Origin: Candidatus Poribacteria bacterium
GTDB lineage: Bacteria; Poribacteria; WGA-4E; WGA-3G
Assembly (NCBI GenBank): GCA_964291315.2
Contig: OZ219753.1
Span: 256,001 to 320,000 of the forward strand
Length of the DNA stretch: 64,000 nucleotides
Reading direction: 5' to 3'
In this document: positions 25,276 through 37,357 of the stretch, piece after piece
How positions within the stretch are numbered: the first letter of the stretch is position 1
How the letters are laid out: each line of letters opens with the position of its first letter
Position numbers and translations under genes: made by a program
The notes under the pieces: model-generated
Database searches by the model: none
The model's input: only the letters and a program-made list of their open reading frames with translations
Told to the model about the DNA's origin: nothing

Positions 25276-26439
25276 ATGGATATGGATGTCACTTACAATG
25301 CTAAACGTGTATACCAACACATCAAACATCTTGCTTTTCCAAGATTGGTTGGCAGTGCGGGCGAGGTAAAAGCGCGAACCTACATTGTTAAGCAGTTTAC
25401 GGCGTTCGGATTGGAAGTCTCGCAAGAAACTTTTTCTTTCACAAAATTTCCGTCCGAAGTGTTACCGCGTATCTTGTGCGGATTCTTTGTGCTTATAGTC
25501 CTCTCTGTACCGTGGTTCGGTGAACGGTTCCCGCTACCGGTATGTTTAGCCTGTTTTGTGAGTCTTTCGCTATCCATGTTCTTGACCCAATGGCAGAAAC
25601 GGCTTGAAGGCTTGTATGATGTCGGTCGGAAGTACAATTCAGCAAACGTTATTGCAACAAACAGTACGAAACAAGGGCGTGATGTCTCGGCTTTGCTTTT
25701 CGTGGCGCACTACGATTCTAAATCACAAGTATTACCTATCGCCGTGCGAGCAGCAGCTTATGGCGTCGCGCTCCTCGGGCTCATCGGACTCACAGTCGTG
25801 ACAGTGGTTAAGGTTGTTACCCTTGTGTGGCTGCCCGATTATATTGTCTGGAGCCTCGCTGGAATTACTACTTTCTGTCTCTTGCTTCTGCAAATCAATT
25901 TGACACAGAACCGTTCCCCTGGCGGTTTCGATAATGCTTCCGGTGTTGGCGTTATGCTCGAAGTCGCACGCGTGGTGATGGCGCGTGATGTGGGGAGGCC
26001 TATAACCTTCCTTGCTGTTGGTGCAGAAGAGTACGGTATGTGCGGTGTGGTACGCTATATGCAAAAGCATGCTGACAAATACGATCGTAATCGTACCTAT
26101 GTTATCAACTTAGATGGCCTCGGCGTTGGAGAGACTGTCAATGTTATCACACGTTACGGTATTCCACCAGTCCACACGACCCGTACGTTGGCTAAGGTGT
26201 TGCAGACATCGGGTGAATCTCTCGGAATACAAGTGTCGGAACGTTATCTGCCGATCGGTGTCGGATTGGATAGCATTCCGATTGCGAGTCGTGGTTTTGA
26301 AGCAGTCACGTTAACGGCAGGAGGTGTCAGTAGCGTTGCTTTGAAAATCCACTCAAAAGAGGACAAAAGTGGCCTGCTCAATGTAAGAAGTCTCCAACAG
26401 ATAGGCGAGCTGATTACCTATGTCATTGAACGCGTCTAA
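25276..26439 (+). CDS. Membrane-embedded M28 family metallopeptidase
   Basis: RLVGS.GE, AHYDS, GFDNASG, GAEEYG, INLDG, IHSKED; four TM inserts. Confidence 0.88.
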   Translation: MDMDVTYNAKRVYQHIKHLAFPRLVGSAGEVKARTYIVKQFTAFGLEVSQETFSFTKFPSEVLPRILCGFFVLIVLSVPWFGERFPLPVCLACFVSLSLSMFLTQWQKRLEGLYDVGRKYNSANVIATNSTKQGRDVSALLFVAHYDSKSQVLPIAVRAAAYGVALLGLIGLTVVTVVKVVTLVWLPDYIVWSLAGITTFCLLLLQINLTQNRSPGGFDNASGVGVMLEVARVVMARDVGRPITFLAVGAEEYGMCGVVRYMQKHADKYDRNRTYVINLDGLGVGETVNVITRYGIPPVHTTRTLAKVLQTSGESLGIQVSERYLPIGVGLDSIPIASRGFEAVTLTAGGVSSVALKIHSKEDKSGLLNVRSLQQIGELITYVIERV

Positions 26440-27064
26440 AAGAACGTCTCCGATCACGGGTGTTATTCTTGCGGGCGGTGAGAGCCGGCGGATGGGAAAA
26501 AACAAAGCGTTGCTGCAGCTTGCAGGCAACTCTCTTGTTGGGCATGTTATCCGGCGTATGCACATCGTTACGGACGAACTCCTCCTTATCACCAATAGTC
26601 CCTCGGAATATGCACACTTAAGTCTCCCAACGTACGAAGATATTTTCCCAAATACTGGGGCGTTGGGAGGCATCTATACCGGTTTATCGTACGCTTCACA
26701 CGATGCTGTGCTTTGTGTTGCATGCGATAGTCCGTTTTTAGAACCGAAACTGCTCACCTATCTTGTCTCCTATTTGGGCGGATATGAGGCGGTGATGCCT
26801 TATACCTTCTGCAAGGACGCAAGACAGACGATACTCCAGCCATTGTGCGCCGCTTATTCTAAGCGCTGTCTACATCTCATCGAATTGATGTTTCAGGAAT
26901 CTGAATTGCGCGCGCACGCCTTCCAAGAACGAGCACGTGTGAAACGCGTGCCGCCTGACATCTGGCAACGCTTTGATCCAGACGGCACATCGTTTTTCAA
27001 CATTAATACACCTGAGGATTTTGACCGCGCACAGGCCTATATACAAGCACAGACTCAGCAATAA
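26420..27064 (+). CDS. mobA: Molybdenum cofactor guanylyltransferase
   Basis: ILAGGESRRMG.NKALL, GALGGI, VACDSPF, QPLCAAY, FFNINTPED. Confidence 0.93.
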   Translation: MSLNASKRTSPITGVILAGGESRRMGKNKALLQLAGNSLVGHVIRRMHIVTDELLLITNSPSEYAHLSLPTYEDIFPNTGALGGIYTGLSYASHDAVLCVACDSPFLEPKLLTYLVSYLGGYEAVMPYTFCKDARQTILQPLCAAYSKRCLHLIELMFQESELRAHAFQERARVKRVPPDIWQRFDPDGTSFFNINTPEDFDRAQAYIQAQTQQ

Positions 27065-27111: not shown

Positions 27112-27528
27112 TTAAGATGAAGTCTGCCGACCAACGCCTTCCTCTTCACATTGGGGACAGGTGTTGCACAGGTGCCTATTTACGAGATGCGCAGATGCCA
27201 ATAGAATGCCGCCTACACTGTGGAAGACAACCTCAAATGTACCTTCAATCGTCGTCCGCCCAATAATAATAAATGCTAGCGCCACTACTAGTATCAGAAA
27301 CGCGCGCCAACTTCTATGGTGACGAACACCCCACGCTAAACTTCCAACTGCAAGCGCAGCTGCTACGGTGATTATAGTCTTTTCGGCAGACTCAGTCGCG
27401 AGGAATCCCAAACCAACTAGGGGCAAAACTACTATCCAAAATGGCATCGCAAGGCAATGCACTGCACATGCAAAAGAGAGGCATGCGCCGGTGTTATCTA
27501 CTAATGCTTGATTAAAACGAGTTTTCAA
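27112..27528 (-). CDS. MerC-domain membrane protein
   Basis: D..GACLSFACAVHCLAMP; four TMs; AHLVNRHLC; C-terminal CxxC. Confidence 0.88.
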   Translation of the reverse strand: MKTRFNQALVDNTGACLSFACAVHCLAMPFWIVVLPLVGLGFLATESAEKTIITVAAALAVGSLAWGVRHHRSWRAFLILVVALAFIIIGRTTIEGTFEVVFHSVGGILLASAHLVNRHLCNTCPQCEEEGVGRQTSS

Positions 27529-27594: not shown

Positions 27595-29859
27595 CTAAAA
27601 ATTAAGTTTGTATAGAAATTTCAGATTCCGCCCGGGTTCTGGCATCACCAATTTGATACGAGACAAATGTTCACGGTATTCTGTGTCAAGAAGATTCTCA
27701 ATCTCGAAAACCAACGTGTTGCCAACCTGCAGCCACGAAAAATTAAAGTGGCACCCGACATCATACACGACATATCCATCGGTCGCTTCCTCAAATTCTC
27801 CGAGACGCGTCTGGCTTCCTGAAAAACGGCTGTTTGCGTAGAAATGAAACGGTGAAGGAGTGTAGCTCAAACCCACCTTTCCATTGAACGGCGGAATACG
27901 CTCCAAGGGACGACCACTGCTTTCAATCGTTCCATCAACGTAACTCATGTTGAGCTGCAGATGGATTTGTGGAATCACCTCGCCACTCAGCTGAAGCTCG
28001 GCACCGTTCATCACAACATCGTGTTCCATATACTGATAAATCCACAACCATCCGGCAGCACCGCTACCCCACTCTTTTTTACCCGTCTGGGTTGGAGCGA
28101 GGTAGTTAGAGATGCGGTTTTGAAACACAGCCAAATTCAGTTTGAACCTATCAGCTGAATATCTTGCAAAGAATTCTGCACCGTAACCGGCCTCAGGTTG
28201 AAGCTCCGCATTGCCAATTTCATACGAAAACACCGCCAGATGCGGACCATCGCTGAAGAGCTCCTCAATGCCCGGAGCCCGAAAAGTCTTCATCAAAGTA
28301 ACACCGGTACTGAACCTATCGCTCCAATCGTAAATGCCAGAGCTTGCTCCTGATACCCCGTTGAAATCACGACGCTGAACAGTTCCGGCTCGGATAACCG
28401 TGCCGGGTCTAAACGGTTCTGAACGCCTAACATCGTAACGGATTGCTCCTTGTAACGTGAATTTATCGAAGTTATGCTGATTTAGATAAAAGCCGGCGGC
28501 TGCGAATTCTCGGGTGTGCGGAGTCCAGTAGAACCCGCCTGTTGCATGATCCCGATATTCACCAGATATGCCCGTAATCGCATTGCCCAAGCCATAAGCC
28601 ATCGCTGAAAAATTGTAAGTGAGCAGGCCAAATTCCACACCTAATGACCCGTTTGACTCTAGCTCTTGATGCTGATAACGAGTATAGGCAGACTGGATTT
28701 TTACCTTCTCAAGCAGTGATCTATTAAAACGATACTCCAGCTGGCCCTCATAACGTTGGCGTTCCAACTCAATATTAACACCGCTAATATGACCTTCCGG
28801 CGACCCCGGAACACCGTAATCGGAACGGTAACTGCTCCCAGAGACACCGATGAAACCCCAAGGCCTAATCAACGAAGTACCGCCTGAAACATTAACGTTC
28901 GAAAGTGACGTATTGTCGATCGCACCTATTGGTGTTTCTGTATCAGCCGCAAGCCGCCGATTCCATTCTAAATTTCCGGCAAAATTACCGACCGGAATCG
29001 TCAAACCCGTCGTACCTGTCAACCCTGAATTCACAGATTCACCTTGAAATGTTAAGTTCATATTGACTTGTTCGGGTAAAATTTGACGGATGTTGTTGCT
29101 TTTGACATTGATAATCCCACCCAATGTGCTCGAACCATACAGAAATGATGCCGGCCCCCGCACGATCTCAATACTTTCCGCAGTCGTGGGATCAATCGAT
29201 ACAACATGATCAGCACTAGATGCTGATTTATCACCAGTACGCTCACCGTTTTCAAGGATAAGCAGCCTGTTCCCCCCTAAACCACGAATCACAGGGCGCG
29301 CAATCGCTCGCCCCATCGTCCGTTGCGATACACCGATCTCGTTCGCCAACGTGTTTGCTAAGGTCATACCAACCCGTTTTTCAAGCTCAGCCTCTCCGAG
29401 CACTAAATCGGTAGTCCTCTCAAGCTGGGAAAGCTCGCGCTTCCAACCATAAACCCAAAGCGTTTCTAATTGAAACGGGAGTTCCTCCAACGAAATCTGA
29501 ATATGAGGAGTTGACGCATCAACAGCTATCGTCCGTTCAAACTGACGATAACCGACTTTCATAAAGCGAAACGTTTGCAGACCCTCCGGCACTTCCGAAA
29601 GCTTAAATTGACCATTCGCATCGGTCTTCACACCCCTTTCAAGCCCACTAACACGCACAGTAACCCCAACGAGACGTATGTGACTACGGGATGCAACAAC
29701 CGTTCCCACAAGGCTCCGCGTTGGACCTTGAACACTTTCATCATCGCCAAAGCAGGAACAGAGACATATGAACTCCGTCATCAACACGAATAGGTAGGGA
29801 TACTTAAAAAGCATCCCTACTACTGAAGAACGGCGCGAACAGCTACAAGGCTGTAACAT
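27595..29859 (-). CDS. TonB-dependent receptor (ZnuD-like metal uptake)
   Basis: N-terminal carboxypeptidase-like domain, plug RPVIRGLGGNRL, IEIVRGPASFLYGS, FRAPGIEELFSDGPH, ENLLD..YREHLS, C-terminal PGRN...F. Confidence 0.93.
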   Translation of the reverse strand: MLQPCSCSRRSSVVGMLFKYPYLFVLMTEFICLCSCFGDDESVQGPTRSLVGTVVASRSHIRLVGVTVRVSGLERGVKTDANGQFKLSEVPEGLQTFRFMKVGYRQFERTIAVDASTPHIQISLEELPFQLETLWVYGWKRELSQLERTTDLVLGEAELEKRVGMTLANTLANEIGVSQRTMGRAIARPVIRGLGGNRLLILENGERTGDKSASSADHVVSIDPTTAESIEIVRGPASFLYGSSTLGGIINVKSNNIRQILPEQVNMNLTFQGESVNSGLTGTTGLTIPVGNFAGNLEWNRRLAADTETPIGAIDNTSLSNVNVSGGTSLIRPWGFIGVSGSSYRSDYGVPGSPEGHISGVNIELERQRYEGQLEYRFNRSLLEKVKIQSAYTRYQHQELESNGSLGVEFGLLTYNFSAMAYGLGNAITGISGEYRDHATGGFYWTPHTREFAAAGFYLNQHNFDKFTLQGAIRYDVRRSEPFRPGTVIRAGTVQRRDFNGVSGASSGIYDWSDRFSTGVTLMKTFRAPGIEELFSDGPHLAVFSYEIGNAELQPEAGYGAEFFARYSADRFKLNLAVFQNRISNYLAPTQTGKKEWGSGAAGWLWIYQYMEHDVVMNGAELQLSGEVIPQIHLQLNMSYVDGTIESSGRPLERIPPFNGKVGLSYTPSPFHFYANSRFSGSQTRLGEFEEATDGYVVYDVGCHFNFSWLQVGNTLVFEIENLLDTEYREHLSRIKLVMPEPGRNLKFLYKLNF

Positions 29860-29871
29860 GAACCTTTCTCC

Positions 29872-30516
29872 TTATTGAACGGTTACCGGTATCGGTAGGG
29901 CCGCCGTGAAGTCCGCATGATCGCCGTGAAGGAGCTGGAGTCTGATTTCCGTTGTACCTGCTTTCAGTCCGGTGATTTCGAACCGTGCGAAAGCCTCTTC
30001 AACATGTTCATCATGCCCGGGTTCTTCATGTTCATGTTCATCATGTTCATCATGCTCATCATGCTCATCATGCTCATGTTCCGCTTCGTCTTCAGACATG
30101 TGGATCTCAATCACAGTAGAATCATAGCCTGTTAAACTCAAGGCGAAAGCCTCTTCTTCGGCGTGATCATGGTCGTGATCATGGTCGTGTTCCTCTTCAC
30201 CAATATGGGTTTCAGTGCCGCTTGCGTTAAGAAACACTACATGCACTTCAATTTCTTCGCCAACTCCAACTGTAAGCCCTCCTGTTTCGCTACCTTGGAA
30301 CTGCCGATACACTTCAGTTTCTCCAACTTCCAAAACGAAGCCGTCTGCATCAGCATGAAAAGGAGCAGGTTCTTCTTCGCCGTGGTCGTGGTCATCAACA
30401 ATAGGGTTGTCATCTGCCCCGCAACCACCAATAAACGGGAGCGCGGCGACGAAAGCCAGTAATAGGCATTGAGAAATAGCGACAGAAAAGTCGCCTCTAG
30501 AAAAATACATAAACAT
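29872..30516 (-). CDS. His/acid-rich metal-binding lipoprotein
   Basis: Lipobox IGGC; DHDH, HDHDHDHDH and (HDE)n tracts; C-terminal LLHGDHADF. Confidence 0.85.
   Translation of the reverse strand: MFMYFSRGDFSVAISQCLLLAFVAALPFIGGCGADDNPIVDDHDHGEEEPAPFHADADGFVLEVGETEVYRQFQGSETGGLTVGVGEEIEVHVVFLNASGTETHIGEEEHDHDHDHDHAEEEAFALSLTGYDSTVIEIHMSEDEAEHEHDEHDEHDEHDEHEHEEPGHDEHVEEAFARFEITGLKAGTTEIRLQLLHGDHADFTAALPIPVTVQ
30024..30080. repeat. Short tandem repeats (9- and 6-bp units) encoding the HEHDEHDEHDEHEHE tract
   Basis: Repeated TCATCATG(C/T) and TTCATG units. Confidence 0.8.
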
Positions 30517-30730: not shown

Positions 30731-31066
30731 CTATTGGGAGTTCATCGGAGAAGGCGGGGGGGCGCGACCGCGCGTGTTCGCGGGAAGCTCCAAGGGGAGA
30801 AATAGGGTTTGATAGGGTGGAGACGTGGTGCCAAAAAGAGATGGAAGAATGAGAGCACAGGTTGTGACTTCAACGCTAACATGCTGACTGTTATATAAAC
30901 AGGCCGTACACTCCTCTTCAGAGTGTACATGTGCGGTATGCTCGTGCATCAGGGCAATGAGACTCAGCATCACGAGAAGAAAGCATAAACCTATTGCGAT
31001 GCAGATTTTTAAGTTTTGCCCAAATGTTAGCGTTAGCATTTCGCGAAAAGCATTGTTGTTTTTCAT
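30731..31066 (-). CDS. DUF2946/CruR-like leader with CxxC and a C-terminal RAPP arrest motif
   Basis: Hydrophobic helix, HEHTAHVH, CTAC, then RGRAPP near the C-terminus; first gene of a TBDT operon. Confidence 0.8.
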   Translation of the reverse strand: MKNNNAFREMLTLTFGQNLKICIAIGLCFLLVMLSLIALMHEHTAHVHSEEECTACLYNSQHVSVEVTTCALILPSLFGTTSPPYQTLFLPLELPANTRGRAPPPSPMNSQ

Positions 31067-31250: not shown

Positions 31251-32453
31251 ATGCTAAGTGTCGAAACTGCCCGCCAACGAATGCTAAGCACACTTCGGGT
31301 GCTACCGGCAGAAAGGCGCGGCATTTTGAATTGTGCCGGTTATGTCCTAGCAGAAGAAGTTGGGGCTGTGGAAAACATTCCGCCTTTTGACAATTCGGCC
31401 ATGGACGGTTATGCCGTGCGCGCAGCAGATGTCCGGGGTATTTCCGAACAAAAAACCGCAGTTCTTTCCGTCGTAGAAACTATCGGTGCAGGCCAAGCTC
31501 CAACAGAGTATATCAACGAAAATGAAGCTGCCCGGATCATGACCGGCGCAATGATGCCCGAGGGCGCTGACGCTGTCGTCATGCAGGAAGTAACCCAACA
31601 AGAAGGCAACACGGTCAAAATTTTTGAAGGCGTTCGTGAGGCTCAAAACGTCCGGTTCACCGGCGAGAGTGTCAAGAAAGGGGCATTGGTCATGGGCAAA
31701 GGAAAGCTCCTACGCCCCCCGGAAATCTCCATGCTTGCGTCCCTCAATTGTGCAGAAGTCTCAGTACATCGGAAACCTACTGTTGCGATCGTCTCCACAG
31801 GTGACGAACTTACACCACTCGGCGGAGCACTCAAGCCGGGAAAAATTCGAGACAGCAACCGCTATGGGCTCCATGCACAAGTTGAAGAAGCAGGGGGAAT
31901 TCCAATTGATATGGGAATCGCCCCAGATGACGCAGCGGAAACAGAGCGCATTTTTCGCACCGCACTCTCAGAAGCAGATGCTCTTATCACAAGTGGCGGT
32001 GTCTCCGTAGGAGAACACGATGTCGTCAAAAACGTTTTAGAAAAGCTAGGTGAAATTAATTTTTGGCGTGTTGCCATGAAGCCTGGAAAACCACAAGCTT
32101 ACGGCATCGCCGATGGAAAACCGATTTTTGGGTTACCCGGCAATCCAGTCTCTTCGCTTGTCGTATTTGAGCTCTTTGTACGACCAGCCCTTTTGAAAAT
32201 GGCAGGACATACAGATATACTGCGGCCAACCTTCAAAGCTGTCCTGTCAGAAAGCGTCAGTAACAAAGACGCCCGTGTTAACTATATACGAGCAATTCTC
32301 AAGCCTGCCGATGATGGATACACCGCTCAAACAACCGGACCGCAAGGATCCGGTATTTTGCTTTCACTTGTCTTAGCGAATGGTTTGATCATAATTCCAG
32401 CAGGTGTGACGTTAGAGGCAGGAGAAACAGTGGATGCCCAATTCATGTTCTAA
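31251..32453 (+). CDS. moeA: Molybdopterin molybdotransferase
   Basis: PPFDNSAMDGYA, RIMTGA, STGDEL, SGGVSVG, MKPGKP, GLPGNPVS. Confidence 0.97.
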   Translation: MLSVETARQRMLSTLRVLPAERRGILNCAGYVLAEEVGAVENIPPFDNSAMDGYAVRAADVRGISEQKTAVLSVVETIGAGQAPTEYINENEAARIMTGAMMPEGADAVVMQEVTQQEGNTVKIFEGVREAQNVRFTGESVKKGALVMGKGKLLRPPEISMLASLNCAEVSVHRKPTVAIVSTGDELTPLGGALKPGKIRDSNRYGLHAQVEEAGGIPIDMGIAPDDAAETERIFRTALSEADALITSGGVSVGEHDVVKNVLEKLGEINFWRVAMKPGKPQAYGIADGKPIFGLPGNPVSSLVVFELFVRPALLKMAGHTDILRPTFKAVLSESVSNKDARVNYIRAILKPADDGYTAQTTGPQGSGILLSLVLANGLIIIPAGVTLEAGETVDAQFMF

Positions 32454-32573: not shown

Positions 32574-33422
32574 CTATGATCTAACCTTTGTCTCTGGAAT
32601 TTCGACCGGCAAATCCAGCCGGTCACCCCACTCTTTCCAGGAACCTATGTAGTTGCTCACCTTTGGATACCCCAAAAGTCGCAATGCCAAATAGGCTTGG
32701 GAAGAGCGGTATCCGCCCTGTCAGTAGCACATGACCTGTTTGTGCGGTGTAATACCGGCCGCTTCATACATCTGCCGGAGTTCATCAGCAGGTTTGAAGG
32801 CACCTGTTTCGTCAAGATTGTGTAGCCATTCGATGTGAATAGAACCGGGAATCGCTCCTGCGCGCTTTGCACGGGCGATCCTGCCGTAGTGTTCATCATC
32901 GGTTCGAGTATCTAGGCGGATAAAGTTATCCCGGCTGAGCAAAAGACGGATCGCATCGGCATCCATATGTGTATCCTGTTGAGGGTTTATTGGGAAGGGT
33001 GGTACTGCTGGAGGTTCAGTACCGGTTGTGCTGATAGGACCCCCCGCTGCGATCCAGGCCTTGAAACCACCATCCAGCAAACGGGTTTCCGGGTGTCCTA
33101 AGTACTCACAAAACCAAAAACCGCGTGAGGCCCGTGTTCCAGAGATGTCCTCATACCATATGATTTGTTTCCGCGGATCGAGTCCGCGCTGCTGAAACAG
33201 ATATGCTATCATCCACATAAAGGTGTCGAAAGTATCTTTGCTGGTATCAATGAGGCTTAAACCGAACAGATCTAAATGAAGAGCACCGGGTATATGCCCG
33301 CGCATATATTCATAAACTGGTCGTGTGTCAAGGATGCAGTGTGTTTCATCGTTTATTGTGCCCTTTAATTCATCAGCAGAGATAACCAAGTGTGGATTCT
33401 TATAACCTTTGTAGTCTTCCAT
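32574..33422 (-). CDS. Two-domain sulfurtransferase (rhodanese/SseA), probable selenoprotein with UGA (Sec) at the catalytic position
   Basis: GHIPGA and GAIPGS; after VMCY the TGA (32721-32723) is followed in frame by [32 protein letters not shown]... to TAG at 32574; RBS AAAGGAG before ATG 33422. Confidence 0.88.
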
Positions 33423-35542: not shown

Positions 35543-37357
35543 ATGTTTTGGGAACAGGTAAAAAGATACTATAGTGCAGGTTCTGCCCATGAATTCCTGC
35601 TCCATTTTAACGTACAGGACCTTCTATACGACGATGTTTACGGTTACCTGCCTGCCTTCGACTACCTGATGGAGCAACTTAATGTATTAGGTTGTGATCT
35701 TGTCCTCGGATATAATACGTCACACGGAATTATTTGGCCAAATATTTGGCGATGGTTGAACACACAGCGGATGTTAAAACTCATTCCTGTGGATCAAGAG
35801 CCCCCCCCGGAGAACGAACGCCCCAGAATCAACGCCAGTTTGGCGGTCTATAAACTTCATGAAGACCCGTTTATAAATGTGAATCCTGAGCCATCAGGTG
35901 AGTTACAAGAACAGCTCAACAATCTCTTGGGGCAAGGTCGGGCAAAAGTTGGGTTAATTATCAATTTTTTGGAGCATTTAGCACCGAACGATCTTTCTTT
36001 GGGGGGCGACAGCAGCTACGATTCATACCGCTTTTTTAGTAGGATCCAAAATTGGGCCTCTGACTTAGATATCCGGAGGCGCGGGCATATCATACTCCTC
36101 CTCACTCAAAATACATTTGATATTCATCCGAGTCTTACCGTCAATCCAGAGATTCCAGTGGTAGAGATTCCATTTCCGGATTACAATCAACGGCATCATT
36201 TTATTGAACATCTGCATACCATCTCAGACGATTTATCGCAGATGCGTAAAACTCTCGGTGACGAGCACGATAGAGAAGTCTTAGCGCGTGAGACGACAGG
36301 GCTCAACCTTTTCGGCATACACGATGTTGTGCGGCAGGCAGAATCCGCAGAGGAGCAAGCCGGCGGTGAACCGCTCGTTCGCTACCGGCGTGAGAGCATC
36401 AGGACCTTCAGCCAAGGTGTCCTTGGACTTGGTGAAACGCATACAAGTGGTTCTGCGGATGGCTGGTATGTCATGCGGGCAATTAGGCACATTGCCGACG
36501 GTATGAAAGATGGAGATCTCCGCCGCGTACCACGCGGAGTCCTTTTCCTCGGACCGCCAGGCACTAGCAAGAGTTACGCTGCACAATTGCTTGCTGGTGA
36601 GGCGGGAATGATCTTTGTGCAACTCCGCTACGCTAGTCAAGTGGGCGAGGTAGTTGTCAACGTCAACGAAAACATGAACGCGTACGAGCGAAATTTGAAC
36701 GCTGCTATCAGCTTTATCCGTGGTATCTCACCTGTGGTCGTTTTTATTGATGAAATAGAGCATGCATCGCCGCATACCAGTATGTATCTAGAAGAACAGC
36801 AGCCGTTCCCACAAAGCCTTATGAATGTAATTAGTGACGAGTCTTTACACGGCAGAGTAATATGGGCAGCGGCGGCGCACCGTCCGGATCTGATGCCGCA
36901 GATATTCCGGCGGCATGGCATCTTCGACACTAAATTCGTCATGCTACCCCGGATCGCTGAGGGCAGAATCGAGGTTTTGAAGGTATTTTGTCGCAGGAAA
37001 ACTGAAAATGATATTAACTTCCGAGCCCTCGTCGGTACTCCAGATACGGACGGGTTAACCGATCGAGACCTGTTTCTGATTGTTCAGCGTGCAAATAATA
37101 TCGCTAGGCATAACCGACGCGACCGTCTTACTGAGACCGATCTCCGTCAATCTTTAGAAGACTTCATACCGACATATTCACCGGAGATGCAGCTTTTCAT
37201 GGGGTTGCTGGCATTGCGAGAAGCAAATTCCCGTATCATGATCCCGGATACACTGTTACCCGCCTACCAAGAATTTATGGATGGGAATCGCATCGACAAA
37301 ACACGGATTAATAGCCGCTTGTTGGAACTGAGCAATCAACTCAACTTAAATGTTTGA
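35543..37357 (+). CDS. AAA+ ATPase with a degenerate N-terminal domain
   Basis: FLLHFNVQD N-terminus, Walker A GPPGTSKS, Walker B VVFIDEIE, HRPDL. Confidence 0.85.
   Translation: MFWEQVKRYYSAGSAHEFLLHFNVQDLLYDDVYGYLPAFDYLMEQLNVLGCDLVLGYNTSHGIIWPNIWRWLNTQRMLKLIPVDQEPPPENERPRINASLAVYKLHEDPFINVNPEPSGELQEQLNNLLGQGRAKVGLIINFLEHLAPNDLSLGGDSSYDSYRFFSRIQNWASDLDIRRRGHIILLLTQNTFDIHPSLTVNPEIPVVEIPFPDYNQRHHFIEHLHTISDDLSQMRKTLGDEHDREVLARETTGLNLFGIHDVVRQAESAEEQAGGEPLVRYRRESIRTFSQGVLGLGETHTSGSADGWYVMRAIRHIADGMKDGDLRRVPRGVLFLGPPGTSKSYAAQLLAGEAGMIFVQLRYASQVGEVVVNVNENMNAYERNLNAAISFIRGISPVVVFIDEIEHASPHTSMYLEEQQPFPQSLMNVISDESLHGRVIWAAAAHRPDLMPQIFRRHGIFDTKFVMLPRIAEGRIEVLKVFCRRKTENDINFRALVGTPDTDGLTDRDLFLIVQRANNIARHNRRDRLTETDLRQSLEDFIPTYSPEMQLFMGLLALREANSRIMIPDTLLPAYQEFMDGNRIDKTRINSRLLELSNQLNLNV

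Follow-up and report, generated by a model that had tools for sequence, protein, structure and literature searches.

A rhodanese gene of Candidatus Poribacteria with UGA at the catalytic codon is a mis-annotated selenoprotein gene of a known kind with a possibly non-canonical insertion signal

The gene at positions 32574-33422 (minus strand) of the window, i.e., of the whole stretch of 64,000 nucleotides of Candidatus Poribacteria DNA that was analysed, is a real selenoprotein gene of a known kind, which is mis-annotated in public databases and has a possibly non-canonical insertion signal. As judged from sequence comparisons, it very probably encodes a genuine two-domain sulfurtransferase, in which the codon of the catalytic cysteine is replaced by a selenocysteine (Sec) UGA. 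This TGA is fixed across an order of sponge-associated bacteria. The original prediction of a Sec-containing sulfurtransferase that annotation pipelines would truncate was borne out by the Sec machinery of the genome, the alternation of Cys and UGA among homologs, the selection on the tail of the gene, and public protein entries that end at the TGA.

The reading frame starts with an ATG at 33422 (minus strand), which has a GGAG 5 nt upstream, and the starting methionine is common to the aligned orthologs. Translation of the minus strand revealed 233 sense codons ending with ...KQVMCY, the in-frame TGA at 32721-32723 (residue 234), 48 further sense codons ([40 protein letters not shown]...), and a TAG at 32576-32574, so that the product has 282 residues when TGA is translated as U. 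This agreed with the earlier reading of a frame that stops at VMCY-TGA and is followed by 48 sense codons; in the mechanical list of open reading frames the frame had been terminated at 32721. A Pfam search with the read-through protein yielded two stretches of the Rhodanese family (PF00581, E 2.9e-35, 121 bits). The best stretch represents the N-terminal domain (residues 15-125, 33048-33380, minus strand). In the alignment to two rhodanese structures, 1UAR and 1E0C, this domain has an Asp at the place of the catalytic Cys (...[11 protein letters not shown]... versus ...YGDKNN... and ...YDDEGG...), and thus it is presumably the inactive one. The second stretch, which was not delimited by Pfam, belongs to the catalytic C-terminal domain, with approximate limits at residues 150-275 (32598-32975, minus strand); the alignments to the structures extend to query residues 274 and 275. 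This domain spans the UGA and is complete only with the 48-codon tail.

The read-through protein could be aligned nearly end to end with 1UAR (Thermus thermophilus rhodanese, E 2.5e-38, query residues 6-274) and with 1E0C (Azotobacter vinelandii RhdA, E 4.7e-36, query residues 11-275). In both alignments codon 234 falls on the Cys of the Y/H-C-x-x-x-x-R-S loop, which verified the earlier claim that the TGA lies exactly at the catalytic Cys in the second rhodanese domain. The active-site loop U-QGGYR-S is aligned to C-RIAER-S and C-QTHHR-S, and it has the C-x5-(R/S/T) pattern of two-domain rhodaneses. A product ending at the TGA would be devoid of the nucleophile and its loop, and its fold would be incomplete at the C-terminal end. 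The protein shares with 1UAR and 1E0C the length, the two-domain layout, the inactive N-terminal domain, the catalytic loop C-x-x-x-x-R-S with Sec in place of Cys, and the C-terminal ...GSW.EWG... motif. It differs from them in having Sec instead of Cys and in the loop residues, which are QGGY instead of RIAE and QTHH, respectively. The similarity is distant, with 135 and 128 bits for about 270 aligned residues, and therefore the substrate preference is not transferable from these enzymes.

The best NCBIfam match was SseA (3-mercaptopyruvate sulfurtransferase, NF008557), which has the same fold and size (1URH, E 7.4e-23), but the score of 98.4 bits is far below the cut-off of 250, and thus the protein is not an equivalog. 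The Arg at position +5 of the loop presumably groups it with the thiosulfate sulfurtransferases, unlike SseA. Two other families also combine a rhodanese domain with Sec, i.e., the single-domain rhodanese_LYCAU (NF041203, CxU motif) and TsoB (NF045694), but the scores were only 29.9 bits versus 115 and 20.5 bits versus 805, respectively, and both differ in motif and architecture. The motif around the Sec is C-Y-U in the present protein, which has two domains.

An ortholog was present in 40 of 41 related genomes. Alignment of these 40 orthologs revealed the alternation between Sec and Cys that had been anticipated for homologs: in one and the same column the codon is TGA in 36 cases and TGC or TGT in four. 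The four Cys orthologs belong to one family (f4) and are 55-59% identical. Throughout the phylum, orthologs were detected in 137 of 151 genomes at E<=1e-60; 134 of them contain an in-frame TGA and three contain none, while eleven genomes of the families f5-f9 were devoid of an ortholog at this threshold. The position of the TGA was read at the same codon in 56 of these orthologs, and for the other 78 of the 134 the result is a count of in-frame stops. The 56 comprise the 36 aligned Sec forms and 20 further orthologs, all of which have the TGA before QGGYR at the sequence level, so that Y-TGA-QGGYR is found in 56 of 56 Sec forms. The Y-U-QGGYRS gene is also present in eight Latescibacterota, two Gemmatimonadota, and two unclassified genome records; thirteen other pattern matches outside the Poribacteria were chance hits with closed frames. 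In metagenomes, 79 of 120 pattern matches were rhodanese-like, with TGA in 13 and TGY in 66 cases.

The genome (4.40 Mb) has the capacity to decode UGA as Sec. The original prediction had made its case dependent on selA, selB, selC, and selD, and all four were detected above the curated cut-offs. The tRNA-Sec (selC, anticodon tca) is encoded at C2:61509-61598 (78.1 bits, cut-off 47) and is adjoined by selB (328.8 bits, cut-off 242); selA scored 588.9 bits (cut-off 268) and selD 357.3 bits (cut-off 125), the latter having one in-frame TGA itself. At least eight other genes with one in-frame TGA each were found, namely six AhpC-TSA genes, one SelW-like gene, and selD (C4:2301999-2302370, C4:2302449-2302817, C4:1108602-1108973, C4:2253622-2253996, C1:471388-471774, C1:367055-367390, C4:2229859-2230080, and C4:721940-722863). 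The genome thus has a sizeable selenoproteome, with at least nine in-frame-TGA genes including the rhodanese. Two of the six AhpC-TSA genes are adjacent to each other. A reassignment of TGA in the genetic code was rejected, because TGA is an ordinary stop codon that ends 426 of 1960 stop-to-stop frames of at least 300 codons; an AAA-ATPase gene in the window (35543-37357) also terminates in TGA.

The RNA downstream of the UGA was analysed for an insertion signal. The two hairpins that had been described there were confirmed, AGGGCGG-AUA-CCGCUCU at 32719-32703 (hairpin 1, minus strand) and CCAA-GCCUAU-UUGG at 32687-32700 (hairpin 2, minus strand), the latter with its loop-leading G 25 nt after the UGA. 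[quoted passage not shown] With our own re-implementation of these four published criteria, which is not bSECISearch itself, the sequence of the window failed, 11 of the 56 Poribacteria Sec forms passed, and 38 of the 56 had no candidate. Of the distinct Sec forms from other phyla, 5 of 21 passed, which is no enrichment over Cys forms (13 of 66). A search against Rfam at the gathering thresholds yielded nothing in the whole window, and the only match near the UGA was a chance match to a miRNA (E 1.4).

The earlier proposal that hairpin 2 fits the SECIS pattern did not hold. This hairpin does not exceed chance expectation and is unconserved: the 4-bp stem exists in only 11 of 56 orthologs, and three of the four pairs are each disrupted in 6 to 12 of the 31 distinct sequences. 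In the window its energy of -6.3 kcal/mol is above the limit of -7.5 kcal/mol, and it is probably not the SECIS. Two further elements were rejected. A hairpin termed region B (apical GCC/GGC, loop UAUYU, about 28 nt after the UGA) is stable in the family f2 only, has no RNAalifold consensus, and has no G in its loop; its energy was -9.2 kcal/mol versus -7.4 kcal/mol for synonymously randomised controls. In the Latescibacterota and Gemmatimonadota forms, a hairpin with a 9-nt loop follows the UGA at a distance of 35 nt, but it is not retained in Poribacteria, and the pass rate does not exceed that of Cys forms.

In contrast to hairpin 2, hairpin 1 is conserved. The full element extends from 32701 to 32722 (minus strand), starts 1-2 nt after the UGA, and consists of the G and the A of the UGA, which are paired with UC, one bulged C, the 7-bp stem AGGGCGG/CCGCUCU, and the loop AUA. 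It was the single RNAalifold consensus structure with both 36 and 56 Sec forms, including the pairing of the G and the A of the UGA. In 98.9% of the alignment cells the pairs are formed, versus 55-66% with slid partners. Seven of the nine pairs are invariant, the central pair is disrupted in 7 of the 56 sequences, and no compensatory changes were found among the up to 56 Sec forms examined. The codons +1 to +7 have a normalised synonymous entropy of 0.22 versus a gene median of 0.68, which is rank 7 of 270 windows along the gene, and the loop position is free to vary synonymously. The real codons yielded a folding energy of -9.3 kcal/mol, compared to -4.8 kcal/mol for synonymous shuffles. However, the same 26 nt are equally stable in 66 GC-rich Cys forms (-9.0 kcal/mol), and therefore much of the hairpin is a by-product of the G-G-Y-R-S codons.

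The codon usage of Sec and Cys forms differed. In 81 Sec forms, which were drawn from three or more phyla, Tyr+4 is encoded by TAC and Arg+5 by CGY in 81 of 81 cases, Ser+6 by TCY in 81 of 81, and residue +7 is Ser in 80 of 81. The respective numbers for 70 Cys forms are 37, 53, 39, and 3. Of the nine Cys forms with a position inside the Sec clade, 4, 6, 5, and 1, respectively, show these features. At residue +7 (32700-32702) the 80 Ser residues of the Sec forms stand against Ala in 67 of the 70 Cys forms. This Ser could be a protein-level adaptation to Sec, or it could reflect an RNA-level need, because the U and the C of its codon pair with the A and the G of the UGA in hairpin 1.

Hairpin 1 resembles a canonical bSECIS in its location within the coding sequence just downstream of a Sec UGA, and in a loop that begins with G, if the closing G-C pair is left open. 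It differs in the spacing, as the loop begins about 8-9 nt after the UGA and not 16-37 nt; the loop AUA of the folded hairpin lies at 9-11 nt. Among the eight other selenoprotein genes of the genome, seven have a G-containing loop of 3-6 nt located 16-22 nt after the UGA; compared with these genes, hairpin 1 is nearer to the UGA by about 10 nt. The nearly invariant stretch that forms hairpin 1 was the only Sec-specific signal at the nucleotide level. Stretch and hairpin are the best candidate for the recoding signal, and if hairpin 1 were the signal it would be non-canonical. Because the synonymous choices are fixed in 81 of 81 Sec forms and relaxed in the nested Cys forms, it is tempting to consider, as a tentative and rather doubtful proposal, a second class of bacterial Sec-insertion signals, a hairpin of about 20 nt of the form CAGGG-N-GG-N-UACCG-Y-UCU-UC located 1-2 nt after the UGA. 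The same SelB would read it in a cell that also has eight SECIS elements with canonical spacing.

The lack of a canonical SECIS, the stable hairpin directly after the stop codon, and the C that follows the UGA in 56 of 56 Sec forms would also be compatible with a read-through of UGA 234 by a standard near-cognate tRNA for Cys or Trp, favoured by a leaky UGA-C context and the adjacent hairpin and without any selenocysteine. This was regarded as very unlikely. The C is forced by the Gln codon and is also present in Cys forms. The codon lies exactly at the catalytic Cys, where a Trp would yield a dead enzyme, and if Cys were wanted, TGY would be one mutation away, yet TGA has been kept in 134 of 137 orthologs. 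Moreover, the genome keeps the full Sec system and at least eight other UGA-containing genes. Decoding of UGA 234 by the Sec system of the organism, yielding a Sec-containing two-domain rhodanese, is thus, with high confidence, the best explanation of the whole.

The selection on the sequence downstream of the UGA was quantified by comparing the gene with its orthologs. Upstream of the TGA pS was 0.70 and pN was 0.140, which results in a pN/pS of 0.200. For the codons +1 to +42 the values were much lower (pS 0.40, pN 0.022, pN/pS 0.054), and for the codons +17 to +42, which are located beyond any RNA element, pN/pS was only 0.039. The tail is therefore the most constrained part of the protein. 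In 56 of 56 Sec forms it is open for 44-48 codons, and the codons +1 to +42 are free of indels. The purifying selection on the tail led to the conclusion that, as judged from the substitution pattern, the frame after the UGA must be translated. A second dip in synonymous variation was seen at 32613-32633 (codons +30 to +36, EWGDRLD), with a normalised entropy of 0.29 versus the gene median of 0.68 in 36 Sec forms. Contigs of one sponge metatranscriptome run, which are about 83% alike and stem from relatives, bridge the place of the TGA; they may be derived from DNA in the library, and contigs cannot show translation. Small-share sequencing runs were disregarded as evidence of the habitat.

The public databases present a different picture of the gene. 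The nearest 80-odd database proteins have 231-234 residues and cover 81-83% of the query, and full-length proteins (273-281 residues) are found only at 53-61% identity; those that were checked, from one cluster and the family f4, are Cys forms. The names of the homologs in public sources place the lineage in Candidatus Poribacteria. The NCBI entries of close relatives have 232-233 residues and in one case 244, and they are annotated as rhodanese-like domain-containing protein, sulfurtransferase, or hypothetical protein. If these gene calls, all in the range of 231-234 residues for close relatives, were taken at face value, the 233-residue protein would be the real product, the UGA a stop, and the downstream frame a decaying remnant. 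This is highly improbable, because such a protein has neither the catalytic residue nor its loop and is cut off before the fold is complete, and because the supposed remnant has a pN/pS of 0.05, below that of the rest of the gene, and has stayed open and free of indels, as described above. An error of sequencing or assembly, or a nonsense mutation that arose recently in one genome, can practically be dismissed, as the same TGA is present in the 134 orthologs of separate species-level genomes as well as in other phyla and metagenomes, and DNA contigs from two other runs span the TGA, one of them with 0 differences over 32597-33360; the absence from relatives or reads that would have spoken against the original prediction was thus not observed.

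The evolution of the Sec and Cys forms was analysed with a FastTree phylogeny of 138 rows, i.e., 78 Sec forms, 59 Cys forms, and a Cys paralog from the same genome as the outgroup; rows with fewer than 200 residues before the site and exact duplicates had been dropped. A single clade of 87 rows (SH-like support 93) contains all 78 Sec rows and, nested among them, nine Cys rows, of which seven are similar to the family f4 and two are others. At least four changes of state between Sec and Cys are needed on the tree. In this tree the Sec form is one clade that is common to genomes of Poribacteria, Latescibacterota, and Gemmatimonadota, with a few nested Cys lineages. The topology fits one old change from Cys to Sec with later reversions, and the tree cannot order the events. 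The outgroup is a separate two-domain rhodanese at C1:449813-450646 (minus strand) with the loop C-R-I-G-E-R-S and an identity of 31%, and it has a counterpart in most of the relatives searched. Therefore, the Sec enzyme adds to an ordinary rhodanese and does not replace it.

The gene neighbourhood did not indicate a pathway. It had been proposed that the gene is convergent with moeA and near mobA and might thus serve the molybdenum cofactor. The convergent arrangement was confirmed (moeA at 31251-32453, plus strand, 120 nt away), but the MobA-like gene, a nucleotidyltransferase gene at 26420-27064 (plus strand) with scores below the NCBIfam equivalog cut-offs, is 5.5 kb off, and the proposed link was rejected because the synteny is limited to the genus. 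In those other members of the genus whose retrieved flanks contained moeA, the distance is 877-1910 nt, and in 25 of 25 genomes of the genus the immediate upstream neighbour, in the same orientation, is a MatE transporter gene; outside the genus neither gene was found within 4 kb of the 15 orthologs examined. The region between sulfatase/peptidase genes and moeA contains the MobA-like gene, a gene for a MerC-family membrane protein (27112-27528, minus strand), and a gene for a TonB-dependent receptor (27595-29859, minus strand); two open reading frames at 29872-30516 and 30731-31066 (both minus strand) had no match in Pfam or NCBIfam.

In Poribacteria outside the genus, 10 of 15 orthologs, including one Cys form, have serS as the immediate upstream gene in the same orientation (loci L042:2563-3954, L044:4825-6159, L052:2603-3925, L054:2695-3984, and six more), and serS overlaps the rhodanese gene in some genomes. 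A functional link would be appealing, because SerRS charges tRNA-Sec. It was nevertheless rejected as a synteny of the lineage, as serS is not upstream in other phyla and at unrelated metagenome loci: among the loci from other sources, 21 of 22 with Sec and 38 of 39 with Cys do not have it. Of the two exceptions, one is a row identical to a locus from Poribacteria, and the other falls with the Poribacteria loci in the tree. In the genome studied here serS is 213 kb away from the rhodanese gene. One Poribacteria relative has an upstream gene for a protein of 672 residues (L050:1530-3548) with a HATPase_c_3 domain and a weak match to the C-terminal part of Shedu SduA (E 4.6e-5, below the cut-off), which may be a defence gene. 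Across the loci compared, from the genus, the 15 orthologs outside it, and other phyla, no widely conserved neighbour was found that would assign a pathway.

Taken together, the gene very probably encodes a cytoplasmic two-domain rhodanese of 282 residues of the thiosulfate-sulfurtransferase type with the active-site loop U-Q-G-G-Y-R-S. The nucleophile is then the selenocysteine at UGA codon 234, inserted with SelA, SelB, SelD, and tRNA-Sec. By analogy with Cys rhodaneses, sulfane sulfur (or selenium) would be transferred from a donor onto the Sec selenolate, and the resulting enzyme-Se-S(-) intermediate would pass it to a thiophilic acceptor; selenium would be expected to lower the pKa and to be a better leaving group. 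Its homology predicts that the protein transfers sulfane sulfur. A binding of selenium is also known for rhodanese and 3-mercaptopyruvate sulfurtransferase, and according to the discussion in PMC8538045 both have been debated as selenium-delivery proteins; a role of the present protein in selenium trafficking is a speculation.

Selenoproteins of this kind have been in print since 2005, when rhodanese-related sulfurtransferase selenoproteins of the COG2897/SseA type were described from the Sargasso Sea (3 sequences in the account of PMC1088965), followed in 2008 by a cd01449-type set from the GOS data (8 sequences in the account of PMC2398784). A 2026 review contains entries for the rhodanese-like forms 2 and 4 with the motif UxxG (PMC13188914), and the same motif for rhodanese selenoproteins appears in the pertinent part of the review PMC9312934. 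The present gene fits this published kind: it has U-x-x-G, here U-Q-G-G, at the catalytic site of a PF00581 protein, Sec for the catalytic Cys, widespread Cys homologs, and a marine setting. The match is by description and motif and not by sequence. A difference is that these sources describe SECIS-like stem-loops for their forms, the small apical loop of which contains a G, and no such conserved element was found here. A search of the full-text literature on Poribacteria and selenocysteine or selenoproteins yielded nothing on rhodanese, and no publication was found that describes the near-fixation in three families of Poribacteria; supplements may hold such lists.

All of the public gene calls seen for close relatives terminate at the TGA, before the catalytic residue, and thus what is deduced about sulfur and selenium metabolism in Poribacteria and their neighbours relies on a broken gene model. 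With no canonical SECIS beside eight canonical-type ones in the same genome, the gene is a clean case for studying the requirements of SelB. The nested Cys reversions are natural Sec/Cys pairs with which the advantage of selenium can be tested. That Sec has been kept in 134 of 137 species-level genomes indicates that selenium gives this sulfurtransferase a lasting advantage in its habitat.
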